DNA of 64,000 nucleotides, taken from NCBI GenBank assembly GCA_963833985.1, contig CAWIAD010000001.1, positions 736,001 to 800,000 of the forward strand, written 5' to 3'. The first letter of the stretch is position 1, and each line of letters opens with the position of its first letter. Positions 23,279-43,815 of this stretch are shown here, in pieces. The translations under genes were made by a program, and so were the position numbers. Source of the DNA: an uncultured Planctomycetaceae bacterium (GTDB taxonomy: Bacteria > Planctomycetota > Planctomycetia > Isosphaerales > Isosphaeraceae). The notes below the pieces were generated by a model. That model saw only the letters and a program-made list of their open reading frames with translations. It was not told where the DNA came from and did no database searches.

Positions 23279-23349
23279 CTACCCGGCCAGGATTCGAACC
23301 TGGAAAAACAGGACCAAAACCTGTTGTGATACCGTTTCACCACCGGGTA
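23279..23349 (-). tRNA. tRNA-Gln (anticodon TTG), CCA not encoded
   Basis: Reverse complement TACCCGG TGGTGAAACGGTATCACA ACAGG-TTTTGGT-CCTGT ... CCAGGTTCGAATCCTGG CCGGGTA G folds as a cloverleaf. Confidence 0.95.
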
Positions 23350-37752: not shown

Positions 37753-39204
37753 GGAAAACTCCGCGAAAGGTCTTACGATCCTCGTCTCGCGATCCCTTGA
37801 TAATGGATTCTTTGCGTCATGAATCCACACAGCCCGCCGTGCTTCAAGGTCGTCGTTCCCTATCGTCAGGCCGGAGTTCGCGTGCTAAGCAGGTTCGCAA
37901 TGGTTCTTTGACAGGCATTCAGTGGGTTGATGCGATCCTGGATGACCGGGAGGCCGCTCTTTGTGGGACACGACTCCCGTGCGCCGTGGAAAGGTGTTGG
38001 TCTTCAGTGGGTGTAACTCCCACCCGGCAACTGGGTCGCTCCAGCCGGTAGCTATCGGAGCGGCGGTGGAGGAGACGAAACCGTCGGAGCCTTCGAGACA
38101 GATGTGTCGCTTGGCGATGCAGCGAACCGACAGGCCGTAACGCGAGTGAACGTTGAGCAGGCCTCGAAAAGTCCAATGTGGTCGCCGACCTTGCTGGAAT
38201 ATGGGGAAGGCCGCCGTCGCTGGGGATGAAAGGGAAACGGTTGGAATAGGCCGCCCCACGAGCGATCAGAACCCAGCGGGCCACCGGGGTATTGACGACG
38301 GCATGTCGGCACACGGAGATCAACACAACACGGGAAACCCCAAGCGGTGAGGGCGCGTGACCCTCAACCGGACGCCCGCGAGGGACCGGCCGGGCTGCCT
38401 GGGGTGGCGGAGAGGCCCGTAGTACCGTCGACGCCGGGTAACTCCGGTCGAGGGAAGGGGCCTTGGTTCAAGGTCAACGCAACAAGCGGCAGACAGCCGG
38501 GAGATTGGCGTGAGTCTATCACCTCCACTGAAGGTCGGGAAGTTGCAGACGGCGTTGCACACCAAAGCGAAGAACGCGCCCAACTATCGGTTCTACGTCC
38601 TGTACGACAAGATTTATCGACGTGACGTTCTGGGATTCGCCTACGAACGCTGCCGTGCCAACGGCGGCGCGCCGGGGATCGACGGCCAGAGTTTCGCCGA
38701 CATCGAGGCGTCCGGGAAGGAACGATGGCTGGACGAACTGGCGGAACAACTTCGTAAGGAGACGTATCAACCCCAGGCGGTGCGGCGCGTGTACATCCCC
38801 AAAGGGGACGGCAAGCAAAGGCCGCTGGGCATTCCTTGCATCAAGGATCGTGTGGTGCAGATGGCTGCGGTGCTGGTCTTGGAGCCGATCTTCGAGGCCG
38901 ACCTGGAGCCGGAACAACACGCCTACCGCCCGGAGCGCAGCGCCCTGGACGCCGTCCGCGAAGTCGAACGGCTGCTCAAGACGGGGCACACCGAGGTGGT
39001 GGACGCGGACTTATCTGGATATTTCGATAGCATACCCCATTCCGAGTTAATGAAATCGGCGTCACGGCGCATCAGCGACGGTCGCGTCCTGCGGCTGATC
39101 AAGATGTGGCTGGAAACACCGGTGGAAGAAACCGACGGGAAGGGGCAGCGCCATCGAACGACCCGGAATAAAGACCAGGGGATGGGTACACCGCAAGGTG
39201 CACC

Positions 39205-41223
39205 GATCACGCCCCCAACAATGTTGCAAAATCGTCCCTGATTCCTGACTCTGTCATTTCCAGATCGCGGCTTCGACCGAAGTACGGGCACGGATGGCAG
39301 CCCCGACTCGATCCCGATCCAAGGCAGGCTGGCGGCCGCGCTCTCGGAGAGGAGGAGTCGACATGATCACGTCCCCACGGAGGCCCACGTTCAGTCCTCC
39401 TGTCACCCGCCACTTCGAGTTCACTCGGCTTCAGGAGCAATTGATCGCGCGTGCATATCAGGTCTTGATCCCGGTCGTTTCGCAGCGCCTGGATCGGCCG
39501 CGACCCAGCCGCAACCACGCGACTGTGGTCCACACTATCCAGTCCAAGGTCGGGGGGGTTTGACAAACCATGATCACGGACAATCTCCGCGTGGCGCTCT
39601 ACGCCCGGGTTTCGGGGGAGCAGCAGGAGAAGGAGGACACGATCGCCAGCCAGCTCGAGGCGGTCACTCAGCGGATCGCCACTGATGGCTTGGAATGCGA
39701 GCCCGAACTGCACTTCGTGGACGACGGCGTCAGCGGTTACATCCTGGCCCGACCGGCACTCGAGCGACTTCGGGACCAAGCCGCCGCTGGAGCCATCGAC
39801 CGCCTCTATATGCTCGATCCGGATCGACTTTCACGCAAGTATGCCTATCAGGTCTTGATCCTTGAGGAACTTATCCGGTGCGGTGTCGAGGTCGTCTTCT
39901 TGCGCAACCCCGTCGGCCGCAGTCCGGAAGCCGACCTGCTGCTTCAGGTCCAGGGAATGATCGCGGAATACGAGCGCGCCAAGATCATGGAGCGTTGCCG
40001 CAGGGGCAAGCAACACGCCGCCCGCCGCGGTTCGGTCAACGTCCTCAGCGGCGCGCCGTACGGCTACCGTTACATCGGCAAGCACGAGGGAGGTGGCGAG
40101 GCGCGTTATCAGGTCCTCGCTGAAGAGTCCCGGGTCGTGCGGAAGATCTTCGAATGGGTGGGTCAGGAACGGTGCTCGATCGGCGAGGTGTGCCGACGCC
40201 TCCGGCGCGACAGTATCCCGACGCGGACCGGGAAATCGGCCTGGGATCGCGCGACGGTCTGGTTGATCCTCAAGAACCCTGCCTACAAGGGGACCGCGGC
40301 CTTCGGCAAGACGCGCTCAGGTGAGTTCAAACCTCAACGCCTCCGCCCGCAGCGAGGCCGCCCCGAACACTCCCGGCGACCGGTCTCACGGGTTGATACA
40401 TCCTCGGAAGATCAAATCTTCATTGAAGTCCCCGGGCTGGTGAGCGAAGACCTCTTCCTGGCTGTCCAGGCCCAGCTTGAAGAGAACCGGCAACGCCGTC
40501 GCGACCGGCCCGGCGGTGGCCGATATCTGCTCCAGGGCCTGGTCGTCTGCAAGCGCTGCGGCTACGGCTGCTACGGCAAGCCGACGAGCCGAGCCGCGTT
40601 CGAGGGCAAGGGTAGGGTCCGCTACGCGTACTACCGTTGCACGGGCTCTGACGCCTATCGTTTCGGCGGGCAGCGCCTCTGCTGGAACAAGCAGATCCGC
40701 ACCGATATCCTTGACGCTGCCGTCTGGGAGGACTTACGAGGTCTCCTGTCCGAGCCGGAGCGGGTCCGGGAGGAGTACGAGCGGCGGCTGCAGGGTGCCC
40801 AGGGCGGGCCGAATCAGGAGGTGGAGCATCTCGGCAAATTGATAAATAATGTGAAAAAGATGATTTCTCGATTAATCGATGCTTACGGCGACGGGTTGCT
40901 CGACAAATCGGAGTTCGAGCCCCGGATCTCGGCGGCAAGGACGCGCCTCTCGAGATTGGCGGAGGAGCATCGACAACGAATCGGCGAGGCCGCCCAAGAG
41001 GCGGAATTGCGACTGGTGATCGGTCAGTTGGAGGAGTTCGCACGTCGCGTCTCGCAAGGGTTGCAAGAGCCGGACTGGGCCACGCGACGGGAGGTGGTTC
41101 GGGCCTTGGTGAAGAAGGTCGAGATCGACGAGCAGGAGGTCCGCATCGTGTATCGGGTCAGTCCGTCCCCTTTTGAGAAAGGCCCCCAACAACGTAGTTC
41201 GCAACATTGTTGGGGGCGTGATC
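39205..41223 (+). mobile_element. Large-serine-recombinase mini-element integrated in the intron RT gene
   Basis: Perfect 23-bp inverted ends GATCACGCCCCCAACAATGTTGC (39205-39227)/GCAACATTGTTGGGGGCGTGATC (41201-41223); GATC at both junctions; removal of 39209-41223 restores the RT frame. Confidence 0.92.
39363..39563 (+). CDS. 66-aa basic protein upstream of the recombinase (candidate directionality factor or regulator)
   Basis: RBS GAGGAGGAG before ATG 39363; RHFEFTRLQEQLIARAYQVLIP; stop 6 bp before the recombinase start. Confidence 0.7.
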   Translation: MITSPRRPTFSPPVTRHFEFTRLQEQLIARAYQVLIPVVSQRLDRPRPSRNHATVVHTIQSKVGGV

Positions 41224-41444
41224 TCACCATTGTTGTCCAACATCTACATGCGACGATTTGTGAAGGGATGGAAGACTGGTGGACACGAGCGGCGTCTGGT
41301 CGCGCGAATCGTCAACTATGCGGACGACTTCGTCATCTGCTGTCGCGGCACGGCCGAAGAGGCCATGACGGTGATGCGGAAGATGATGTCCAGGCTGAAG
41401 TTAACGGTGAACGAGACCAAGACGCGGCTGTGCCACCTGCCTGA
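39570..41444 (+). CDS. Large serine recombinase (resolvase + recombinase + Zn-ribbon + coiled coil); reads through the right junction
   Basis: ALYARVS catalytic Ser, DDGVSG, RPALERL, DRLSRK, APYGY, YLLQGLVVCKRCG...YYRC. Confidence 0.96.
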   Translation: MITDNLRVALYARVSGEQQEKEDTIASQLEAVTQRIATDGLECEPELHFVDDGVSGYILARPALERLRDQAAAGAIDRLYMLDPDRLSRKYAYQVLILEELIRCGVEVVFLRNPVGRSPEADLLLQVQGMIAEYERAKIMERCRRGKQHAARRGSVNVLSGAPYGYRYIGKHEGGGEARYQVLAEESRVVRKIFEWVGQERCSIGEVCRRLRRDSIPTRTGKSAWDRATVWLILKNPAYKGTAAFGKTRSGEFKPQRLRPQRGRPEHSRRPVSRVDTSSEDQIFIEVPGLVSEDLFLAVQAQLEENRQRRRDRPGGGRYLLQGLVVCKRCGYGCYGKPTSRAAFEGKGRVRYAYYRCTGSDAYRFGGQRLCWNKQIRTDILDAAVWEDLRGLLSEPERVREEYERRLQGAQGGPNQEVEHLGKLINNVKKMISRLIDAYGDGLLDKSEFEPRISAARTRLSRLAEEHRQRIGEAAQEAELRLVIGQLEEFARRVSQGLQEPDWATRREVVRALVKKVEIDEQEVRIVYRVSPSPFEKGPQQRSSQHCWGRDLTIVVQHLHATICEGMEDWWTRAASGRANRQLCGRLRHLLSRHGRRGHDGDAEDDVQAEVNGERDQDAAVPPA

Positions 41445-42017
41445 GGAGACGTTCGACTTTCTGGGTTATACCCTCGGCCGGAACTACGACCGACGAACGG
41501 GCCGATCCTACATAGGGTCACGCCCATCGCGGAAGAAGATCATTCGGCTGTGCAGCGAGATCAGTGCGATGACGACGCGCCAGACCACTGGACAGGACGT
41601 CGAGATGCAGATTGGTCGGATCAATCGCAAGTTCCGCGGTTGGTCCAACTATTTTCGCATCGGAACGGTGAGCCCAGCCTATCGCCAAGTCAACCACCAC
41701 GTCCGCTACCGGGTACGTCAGTGGTTGTGTGCGAAGTTCAAGGTGCCGGGTCAGGGGCTCAGACGCTACCCTGACAGATACCTGCACCAGGAGTTGCATC
41801 TTTACCAGCTGCAACGAACCTAGCCGCGATGGTTTCGTGAGCGAACGTGTGAACTCAACCGATGAGACAAGCCTTGTCCGAAAGCTGGATGCGGGAACAC
41901 CGCCCGTCCAGTTTGATGAGCGGGGTGTGGAAACGAGGCCCAGCCGAGCCATCGACTCGAGCCCACCGCGCCACACCTCGACTCTACATCTTGTCACTTC
42001 TTCGATCTGATGGAACC

Positions 42018-42085
42018 TGGAATGGCACGATGAGAATCGTACCCCACGAGAATGGAATGGCACGATTGGAATCGTACCCCACGAG
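42018..42085 (-). repeat. Two tandem GTGG-type REP copies
   Basis: TGGAATGGCACGAT(GA/TG)GAATCGTACCCCACGAG at 42018-42050 and 42053-42085; each has a GGCACGAT/ATCGTACC hairpin. Confidence 0.85.
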
Positions 42086-42368
42086 GAGAGCGGCCAGGCT
42101 TGGCTCTCAGCCCCGGGCAAGCGAACGGCCATCCTGTCCAAAGACTTCTGTGGATTTGCTGAGGCTTGCAAATCGCACGCCCGTCGCTGCGCAGCCCGAA
42201 GCGAGAAGCCTTGCAGGAGATTGGCGGGTTGCGCGGCGTTGACCCACCCTACGAATTTAGATCATATCTCAAGCAAATCAATGCATTATCCAGGACCTTT
42301 CGCAACCGTGCGGAAGCGGTCAAAATCATCGATGAAGATTTGTAGGGTGGGTCAGCGCAGCGCAACCC

Positions 42369-43815
42369 CATAGCGTCCAACTTAAGGAATTTGGCCTAGA
42401 AAAAAAGAAAGGAAGTCCTTAATCCAGTTCGCGTTGTATCGAGCAAGCGCGTCCTGGAAGAAGGAGCTTCCGTTGGGGATCATAAACAAGGTGGCCGTGT
42501 TGTTGCAATCGAGCTTGGGTTCGAAACTCGACGAGATCGGTCGTGCGACGGGCGTGATCCGGCGGCAACGAAAATTCTCGGGCGCGTCGCTGCTCAAGAC
42601 CATGGTTCTGACTGTGATGAAGACGCCTCGCCCCCATACCAACGACTTCGTCGCGACGGCGGCACTGCTGGGTGTGAACGTGACTGCCGAGGCGATCGAA
42701 AAGCGGTTCTCGGAGAAGCTCGTCGCGCACTTGCGCGCGGGTTTGGAACACGTGTTGGAGTCCGTCGTGGAGGCGTCGGCGGCCGGCGTGGCGCTGCTGG
42801 ACAAGTTCACCGCCGTCGTGATCGCCGACAGCACCACGGTGACCTTGCCCGACGAATTCGAGGCGGAATTTCCCGGCTGCGGTGGCAAAACGGGCAGTGG
42901 TAAGGCAGCGGTGAAAATTCAGGTGGCGTGGGAACTGCGCCGCGGTCAGTTGGAGAAGTTGGAGGTCCATCCCGGTCGTCACAGCGACGCCACGAGCGTG
43001 GACGTGGACGCACCAGTGGCCTCCGGATCGCTGACGCTCCGCGACCTGGGATACTTTTGCCTGGAGCGGTTCCGATCCATCGGCGCAAGGAGCTTATTGG
43101 ATTTCGCGTTGGCAACACGGCACGGCCGTTTTCGACGCGGAGGGGCGGCGATGGGAGATGCTGGCGTTTCTCCGACGGCAACCCGCCGGCATGCCGGTCG
43201 ACGTGTCGATCGCGGTGGGCGCGGCGGAGCGTCTGGGATGTCGGTTGATCGCCTTGCGAGTGCCTCCGGAGGTGGCGAACCGACGTCGGCAAGCGGCCTA
43301 CGAAAAGGCTCAAAAACACGGCCGCGTGCCCACGCAAGAACATCTGGACTTGTGCGACTGGACGATTTTCCTGACCAACTGCCTGGCCGCACTTCTGACG
43401 TGGAAAGAGGTCGTGGTCCTGTATCGGACGCGCTGGCAAATCGAACTGCTGTTCAAACTTTGGAAATCTCACAACCACCTCGCCGAGTCGCGTGCACACT
43501 GGACCAGCATGGAACGCCTGGCGTTGTTCTGGGCGAAACTGATCGGCGTGGTGCTTCAGCATTGGCTGCTCCTGACCGCGAACGCGGCCGATCCCCGCCG
43601 CAGCCACTGGAAAGCGGCCCGCGTCATCCGGAACTGGATGGAATCCCTGACCCGAGCGTTGGATAACATCGACGAGCTCATACGCACCTTGAGAGACATG
43701 GCCACGACGATCGCTAGCGTCGCTCAGAAGAAACGTCGGAAGAAACGGCCCAGCCTATTCCAACTCCTTTTGGATCCAGAACTTCTGGAATGGAATCCTT
43801 AAGTTGGACGCTATG
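42369..43815 (+). mobile_element. IS4 family insertion sequence (IS231/IS186-like CAT... ends)
   Basis: 20-bp perfect IR CATAGCGTCCAACTTAAGGA (42369-42388)/TCCTTAAGTTGGACGCTATG (43796-43815); flanking 20-bp near-direct repeat. Confidence 0.92.
42473..43802 (+). CDS. IS4 family DDE transposase (frameshift near 43085)
   Basis: IADSTTVTLP, LRDLGYF, YRTRWQIELLFKLWKS (YREK motif); stop codon lies within the right IR. Confidence 0.93.

Follow-up and report, generated by a model that had tools for sequence, protein, structure and literature searches.

How a group II intron comes to interrupt a small intergenic hairpin, and whether it seeks out such hairpins, is the question raised by a 64,000-nt stretch of contig CAWIAD010000001.1 from an uncultured Planctomycetaceae bacterium (the window, from whose first letter the plain coordinates below are counted). 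Here, a group II intron (37979..41987, + strand) splits a repetitive extragenic palindrome (REP). The 5' half of the occupied REP, GTGGGACACGACTCCC (37963..37978, +), comprises the GTGG foot, the 5' stem arm and the loop, and carries both intron-binding sites: IBS2 (GGAC, 37966-37969, +) and IBS1 (ACTCCC, 37973-37978, +; consensus ATTCCR). The 3' half, ATCTTGTCAC (41988..41997, +), is delimited by exon alignment. Judged from sequence comparison, the intron is very probably a recently active, class F-like IIB intron without an endonuclease domain (En-minus), which retrohomes into REPs through ordinary guidance by its exon-binding sites EBS1 and EBS2 and whose lineage keeps EBS2 and retunes EBS1. 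This reading builds on the insertion sites and their register, on the covariation of the guides with the exons and on the repeat nature of many targets, all of which are observed directly.

The original prediction, made from the letters of the window, held that the ligated exons reconstitute a REP, and indeed GTGGGACACGACTCCC|ATCTTGTCAC matches both neighbouring free REPs gaplessly (two matches, with none in 100 shuffles). These neighbours (42022-42047 and 42057-42082, both - strand) are inverted partners of the occupied copy and belong to a GGGT subtype that mismatches EBS2. The rejoined exons also rebuild the predicted GTGG-led hairpin, albeit a weak one in the window, with -2.9 kcal/mol for the ligated copy against -5.7 kcal/mol for the neighbouring free REP, both folded as DNA.

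Thirteen intron 5' ends exist in the 10.2-Mb genome. Twelve copies are 99.8-100% identical over their first 542 nt, and the thirteenth is older, deleted and 95% identical; such near-identity implies, at the level of sequence, recent mobility. Comparison of the flanks of these related copies agrees with the predicted homing site: twelve of the 13 split a GTGG REP at one register, with the consensus GTGGGACACGATTCCR|DTCKTGTCAC, and one (C2:1011493) is located in a non-hairpin stretch approximately 55 nt from a REP, with a perfect match to both guides. All 13 occupied sites are intergenic according to our own hexamer gene caller, which assigns 80% of the genome as coding. With the same caller, 165 of the 172 free REPs found genome-wide within five mismatches are outside predicted genes. 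The free REPs form 75 clusters, many of them in inverted pairs about 74 nt apart, and the reversed-genome control yields a single hit. They have the GT(A/G)G foot, short stem and 2-5 nt loop by which REPs are defined (PMC6006769; this and most later citations refer to passages of the papers named), and they are multicopy, intergenic and clustered in inverted pairs.

The exact REP pattern occurs in eight of 13 congeners and in none of the 107 other genomes of the family that were searched. In one congener (G009), a gene that resembles a REP-associated tyrosine transposase (RAYT) and encodes HUH and tyrosine motifs is bordered by REP dimers; against the model NF047646, its protein reaches 57.8 bits (E 1e-15), below the cut-off of 80, and Pfam Y1_Tnp is not matched. 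The orthologue in a second congener (G001) has one internal stop, with a REP pair directly upstream. Taken together, the common register, the intergenic position of the free copies and the RAYT-like gene flanked by the same REP in two congeners bear out the predicted homing into a multicopy intergenic REP family. Separately, two degenerate copies of another REP family, of the GTAG type, form an inverted pair at approximately 42240-42375 of the window; the RAYT of that family is at G000:C1:530064 (G000 being the genome of the window), and a family of IS-like Y1 transposases of about 355 aa occupies some 16 places in G000, unlinked to the GTGG REP.

Domain I carries two TGGAAT hexamers, both of which are, as predicted, at the tips of stem-loops in local folds. 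The one at 38242-38247 (CGGT-TGGAATA-GGCCG) had been taken as EBS1 and the one at 38195-38200 had been mentioned in passing; covariation reverses this assignment. The hexamer at 38195-38200 (+) is situated in the loop of the GCCGACC...GGGGAAGGC hairpin (38184-38212), and across 55 foreign intron rows this loop forms 265 of 330 possible Watson-Crick pairs with the last six exon bases, against 104.9±9.0 pairs with shuffled exons (maximum 143 in 10,000 shuffles). The test left out 18 rows in which the hairpin pattern was undetected, together with rows inserted at the 3' end of another intron, and kept one mis-registered row that scores 0. The second hairpin (38232..38258, +) has a conserved TGGAATA loop (38242-38248), which is the same in 32 of the 33 relatives having this hairpin, regardless of the exon, and is AGAATA in the remaining one; its TGGAAT finds a partner at only 46 of the 198 exon positions. 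Since the loop at 38195-38200 covaries with the exon and the loop at 38242 does not, EBS1 is the former, and the near-invariant 38242 hexamer is refuted in that role. Neither does the 38242 loop serve as alpha'. Compensatory changes in relatives place alpha' (GAGCGAT) at 38260..38266 (+), where it was found by complementarity to alpha (GTCGCTC, 38035..38041, +) in the loop of Ib. The second hairpin is confined to close relatives and shows compensatory changes in its stem.

Folding, which had been suggested as the means of locating EBS1, is of little help here: the single-sequence fold of 38170-38330 is uninformative (z -0.22) and the consensus fold leaves domain I unclear, so that the EBS assignments rest on covariation. 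Within this genome, ten of the 13 sites pair 6/6 with EBS1 when G-U is allowed, two pair 4/6 and the old copy pairs 3/6. The occupied copy in the window is among those with 4/6, as had been stated for its pairing with TGGAAT.

A second guide, overlooked in the original prediction, is EBS2, whose core GTCC (38171-38174, +) pairs with GGAC at positions -13 to -10. Over five bases, the 33 close rows form 111 of 165 pairs against 91.8±3.4 when shuffled, and 21 distant rows, with the register shifted by one base, form 59 of 105 against 35±4.4. GGAC is present in all 13 occupied sites and in 54 of the 172 free REPs. The commonest REP subtype, GGGT (61 copies, including the neighbours in the window), is never occupied (Fisher p 8e-7, a value inflated by non-independence). 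In classes E and F, EBS2 is dispensable for in vitro splicing, and a role in homing has been proposed (PMC3753933). Occupied and empty REP subtypes differ in their match to EBS2, which gives genomic support to the proposed role in DNA targeting: in this genome, the match predicts which REPs are occupied.

The same division of labour between the two guides appears among related introns. A tree of 58 5' RNA segments, from which the EBS1 loop was removed, contains a well-supported clade of 33 rows (support 100/99), 30 of them foreign. GG(A/T)C occurs in the IBS2 register in 24 of the 30 foreign clade rows against none of 22 more distant rows, counts that omit three rows having the second hairpin and falling outside the clade. 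Meanwhile, EBS1 takes about 19 forms within the clade. Of the 30 clade targets, 21 carry GGG[AT][CG][AG], and the GG(A/T)C core resembles GGGGWSAS, the motif of the inverted repeats of terminal-inverted-repeat-associated tyrosine transposases (TIRYT; PMC3733652, PMC6006769). The targets were compared with a reference set of 67 Y1 loci from 11 genomes, 60 of these loci being the best-scoring among 176 hits. Of the 32 distinct target 15-mers, 11 recur three or more times within a single Y1 locus; the corresponding number is 0 for reversed motifs and for three random-DNA sets, and 1/22 for distant introns. Pair scores from three boundaries that the fuzzy pattern had shifted were set aside. Furthermore, targets bracket Y1 genes in inverted orientation in eight of nine loci, the loci having been chosen for having matches, and four of the bracketed proteins are confirmed as Y1_Tnp. 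The target repeats reach 114, 109 and 27 copies per genome in three cases and 4, 5, 5 and 13 in others. The lineage appears to reside mostly in Isosphaeraceae-type planctomycetes, with another kind of repeated element probably serving as its landing pad.

Several further arrangements were observed among these introns and repeats. At four loci (G000:C2:3098982, C2:2427284, C2:6400696 and C1:1082471), this genome has TIRYT and RAYT genes of its own, with repeat arrays identical or similar to the targets of related introns elsewhere; its own intron does not use these arrays. Tandem introns exist at L054, L055, L073 and L040, one copy beginning exactly at the CTCTAC end of another. In Thermoguttaceae (L019, L020 and L022), the target of a more distant intron is a GGGGACA-type repeat, read on its opposite strand, that also occurs in Y1 loci, apparently an independent use of the same repeat class.

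In the mechanism proposed here, EBS1 (38195-38200) would pair with ATTCCR at positions -6 to -1 and EBS2 (GTCC) with GGAC at -13 to -10. This ten-base signature is supplied mainly by one intergenic subtype of the GTGG REP, so insertion falls at the 3' edge of the REP loop and outside genes. Across hosts, the lineage would hold EBS2 on the GG(A/T)C core that the REPs of Y1 (HUH) transposases have in common with the inverted repeats of these transposases, and EBS1 would be re-tuned to the repeat family that each host carries. The lariat RNA may reverse splice into single-stranded DNA and be primed at the replication fork, as is established for other En-minus introns (PMC4424553), and insertion into a REP would presumably cost the host little. 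The chemistry itself is most likely standard.

The strongest competitor of this mechanism, though an unlikely one, is a filter rather than an adaptation, in which the intron inserts at any GGACnnnATTCCR site, the surviving copies are those in intergenic DNA and REPs supply most of the intergenic matches. The genome contains 85 sites that match both guides perfectly; 50 of them are non-REP and empty, with 39 of the 50 in predicted genes, as such a filter would have it. Among intergenic perfect sites, 9 of 34 in REPs and 1 of 12 outside them are occupied, a difference short of significance (p 0.25), and the single copy in a non-hairpin site points the same way. For a single genome, such a filter accounts for the pattern, and it is probably at work as well, but it leaves unexplained that about 19 forms of EBS1 in one clade are all directed to sites beside a common GG(A/T)C core, frequently in Y1 repeats.

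It is decidedly improbable that the intron recognizes structure in the manner of class C, its ribonucleoprotein reading an extruded REP hairpin and inserting at the loop. Twelve of the 13 sites are indeed hairpins split at the loop edge, and some relatives are found in inverted dimers (L038, L058). IBS2, however, is positioned in the stem, where folding would probably hide it; only the REP subtype that matches EBS2 is used, though the other subtype folds too; one copy is in a non-hairpin site and the target junctions of many relatives fold weakly or without a local hairpin; and the intron possesses EBS2 and an AGC triad, unlike introns of class C (IIC). Given the perfect EBS match of the non-hairpin copy and the unfolded targets of many relatives, recognition of the hairpin itself is not supported.

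Assistance by an HUH transposase, whose TnpA would expose single-stranded DNA by binding or nicking or would provide a 3'-OH primer, is very unlikely. It would account for targets that are repeats associated with Y1 transposases and for an intron-encoded protein (IEP) without an endonuclease domain, and of the 17 intron 5' ends listed for five relatives, six have a Y1 hit no more than 2.5 kb away, in one case an unrelated IS-like Y1. Here, however, a recent burst has left 12 near-identical copies, yet no Y1 gene is found within 3 kb of any free REP, and Pfam, motif and protein searches of this 96% complete genome reveal no cognate RAYT orthologue (best 34% identity). Least credible of all is the multiplication of a single insertion by duplication or recombination of REP cassettes, or an assembly error around 4-kb repeats: seven of the 13 copies have a common upstream cassette (37885..37962, +, in the window), part of a composite REP cluster, two loci have flanks 97-99% alike over about 100-140 nt, single-nucleotide polymorphisms (SNPs) are shared across copies in a mosaic that reflects exchange between copies or phasing error, and both contigs break inside an intron copy, but there are eight different 16-nt 5' exons, 24 of the 31 BLAST hits to the cassette genome-wide have no intron (the other seven are followed by one within 110 nt), and the adjacent flanks, 78-99% alike over at most about 280 nt with nothing common beyond, are far more divergent than the introns (99.7-100% alike), which favours separate insertions.

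Several observations weigh against guided retrohoming into REPs as set out above. No strand bias relative to replication is detectable (8/13 against 22/54, p 0.22, with a weak GC skew). Neither splicing nor mobility is observed in the genome data or in contigs from public sequencing runs; in those runs, of which the best has a share of 0.34 and whose short contigs come mostly from relatives, no spliced or empty junction appears, a result that speaks neither for nor against. The copy in the window and one other pair only 4/6 with EBS1, and a candidate EBS3, an A that pairs with a +1 T in 19 of 31 rows without covariation, is mostly mismatched by the +1 base in this genome. In addition, the 18 rows lost for an undetected hairpin pattern reduce the EBS1 test, and the rows are kin, several coming from one genome, so that the p-values overstate significance. 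As for the repeats, 21 of the 32 targets of relatives are tied to no Y1 locus in the limited set of 67 loci, and some targets are low-copy, with five copies in G145 and in G020 and four in G148.

The assignment to group II is based on sequence, on Rfam and protein profiles and on folds, which together identify the intron ends (GTGCG at the start and CTCTAC at the end), domains I, V and VI and an open reading frame (ORF) for a reverse transcriptase (RT)/maturase. The RNA matches the Rfam family D1D4-4 (RF02003) with 98.9 bits, and the RT/maturase matches TIGR04416 with 360 bits (cut-off 300). The gene is in two parts, a 5' part with RVT_1 and GIIM domains (38510..39208, +) and a 3' part with the YADD motif and the maturase domain (41221..41823, +); uninterrupted, it encodes 432 aa and is intact in two clean copies. 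Domain profile searches find no endonuclease domain in the protein. Domain V, with the AGC triad and a 5-nt loop (GAACA), and domain VI occupy 41882..41987 (+) in a local fold. The covariation of both EBS1-IBS1 and EBS2-IBS2 pairing is that of a IIB intron.

The protein shares 50.6% identity with Ni.ha.I1, 47% with a g3 fragment of A. caldus and 30% with a g1 locus; among these three references, two of class F and one g1, the class F intron Ni.ha.I1 is the nearest, which suggests an En-minus, class F-like IIB intron. The RT-X protein without En is accordingly related to class F references, and the 5-nt domain V loop is a class F feature, common to class E as well (PMC3753933). The 432-aa RT-X and the 1,994-nt intron also fit the sizes of the class F members (g2-g5) Ni.ha.I1, So.us.I2, Ge.ur.I1 and Pe.th.I2 (PMC3552965 Table S2), and the frame of the EBS1 hairpin is the same as in class F (PMC3753933). 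In contrast to this intron, no REP or terminal inverted repeat (TIR) target is listed for the class F introns in the consulted parts of PMC3552965, where several have a 'putative non-coding sequence' as their target.

The closest precedent is RmInt2 of Sinorhizobium meliloti, a class D, IIB intron that homes into the inverted repeats of ISRm17 (PMC4615759). Like RmInt2, the present intron is an En-minus IIB intron with EBS1/EBS2 pairing, its target is the repeated end of another mobile element, a short 4-bp EBS2 pairing suffices and several copies exist per genome. Unlike RmInt2, its IEP is class F-like, its targets are the REPs and TIRs of Y1 (HUH) transposases, dispersed at copy numbers from tens to hundreds and unaccompanied by the transposase gene, and EBS1 changes from one repeat family to another across an entire clade. 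Class C introns insert after terminators or at attC sites (PMC4424553, PMC8919778). The intron resembles them in being En-minus and in using abundant non-coding palindromes outside genes, but where class C combines a short EBS1 and no EBS2 with insertion after a stem-loop, this intron possesses a 6-nt EBS1 together with EBS2 and splits the hairpin.

REPs are also the targets of the insertion sequence (IS) elements ISPpu9, ISPpu10, ISPsy8 and ISPa11 (PMC1525189). The use of a REP as a safe multicopy landing site is similar, but these elements are DNA transposases and the intron is an RNA-guided retroelement. According to the same paper, a group II intron of P. putida is REP-associated in only two of nine copies. 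The GTGG-footed hairpin beside a RAYT-like gene and the GGGGWSAS-type inverted repeats flanking Y1 genes correspond to REPtrons and TIRtrons, respectively (RAYT/TIRYT; PMC3733652, PMC6006769). Group II introns in these repeats are unmentioned in the main text of both papers, in which 'intron' has 0 and 2 unrelated hits. The target styles described for bacterial group II introns in PMC4424553 are homing sites, terminators and attC. In the literature covered, no group II intron is reported to home into REPs or into the repeats of TIRYTs; Simon et al. 2008, the class F definition, is outside that coverage and may describe such targets. REPs as targets of IS elements and intron homing into IS inverted repeats are thus already known, while the corrected EBS1, the identification of EBS2 and the clade-level preference for HUH-transposase repeats are new here and well supported.

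Homing in this clade seems to be aimed, across many hosts, at the REP and TIR families of Y1 transposases. With about 19 variants of EBS1 borne by a ribozyme that is otherwise almost fixed, the clade amounts to a natural library, the landscape of 172 REP sites makes target rules directly testable, and the intron suggests a small En-minus targetron scaffold.

Inside the intron, an element of a large serine recombinase (39205..41223, +) interrupts the RT gene at GATC, as a 2,015-bp insertion in the codons PQGAP|ISP; it extends the intron from 1,994 to 4,009 nt, and the predicted nesting of a recombinase element in an intron in a REP is therefore real. Its perfect 23-bp terminal inverted repeats (39205-39227 and 41201-41223) include GATC. 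They enclose an 89-aa ORF (39294..39563, +) with no Pfam or NCBIfam match, and the start of the recombinase ORF (39570..41444, +), which contains Resolvase, Recombinase and Zn ribbon domains and whose frame extends past the right end into intron DNA. Eleven whole copies of the element exist; nine are within this intron, seven of them in forward and two in inverted orientation, and the other two are at other places. In a tenth element-bearing intron copy, truncated by the start of a contig, one end of the element can be seen, so ten of the 12 recent intron copies carry the element in their RT gene; the RT is probably supplied in trans by the two clean ones, or else becomes available once the element has been excised. 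One synonymous SNP, present in all seven forward element-bearing copies, is missing from the clean copies and from the inverted ones; this distribution suggests that element and intron may have spread as a unit, with RT in trans. At G000:C2:2143754, an intron copy of 5,304 nt contains the recombinase element in inverted orientation and, within its maturase region, another insert of some 1.3 kb. Also located were an orphan 3' end of the intron (G000:C2:500129) and another group II RT gene, only distantly related (36% identity; C2:4726874).

The same RT site is interrupted in other genomes. Among 68 distinct usable metagenome ends, drawn from 80 of at least 142 matching loci after eight duplicates and four short ends were dropped, 52 lie directly against PQGG|xSP codons in a diverse range of group II RTs, in either orientation, and the terminal repeat of the element mimics these codons. 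The end pattern of the element turned up in none of 300 further genomes that were sampled from across the phylum. The literature covered contains no description of serine recombinases that target intron RT genes, and RT terms are absent from the consulted passages and eight supplement files of PMC10083194. A further construction with three tiers, which we consider doubtful, would make the clade a specialist parasite of HUH repeats, with EBS2 anchored on the core conserved by these transposases, EBS1 reprogrammed to follow the repeat families of each host and the single-stranded state or nick of the transposase possibly replacing the endonuclease; the recombinase element would parasitise the RT in turn and ride in trans-mobilised 4-kb copies.

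Around the intron, a FAD-monooxygenase-like gene lies on one side and a frameshifted DDE transposase on the other; the latter, DDE_Tnp_1 (42434-43802), is directly downstream of the REP cluster. No TTGACA-type candidate in the upstream cassette passed the promoter scan. Farther away in the window, a tRNA gene is situated on the minus strand at 23279-23349.

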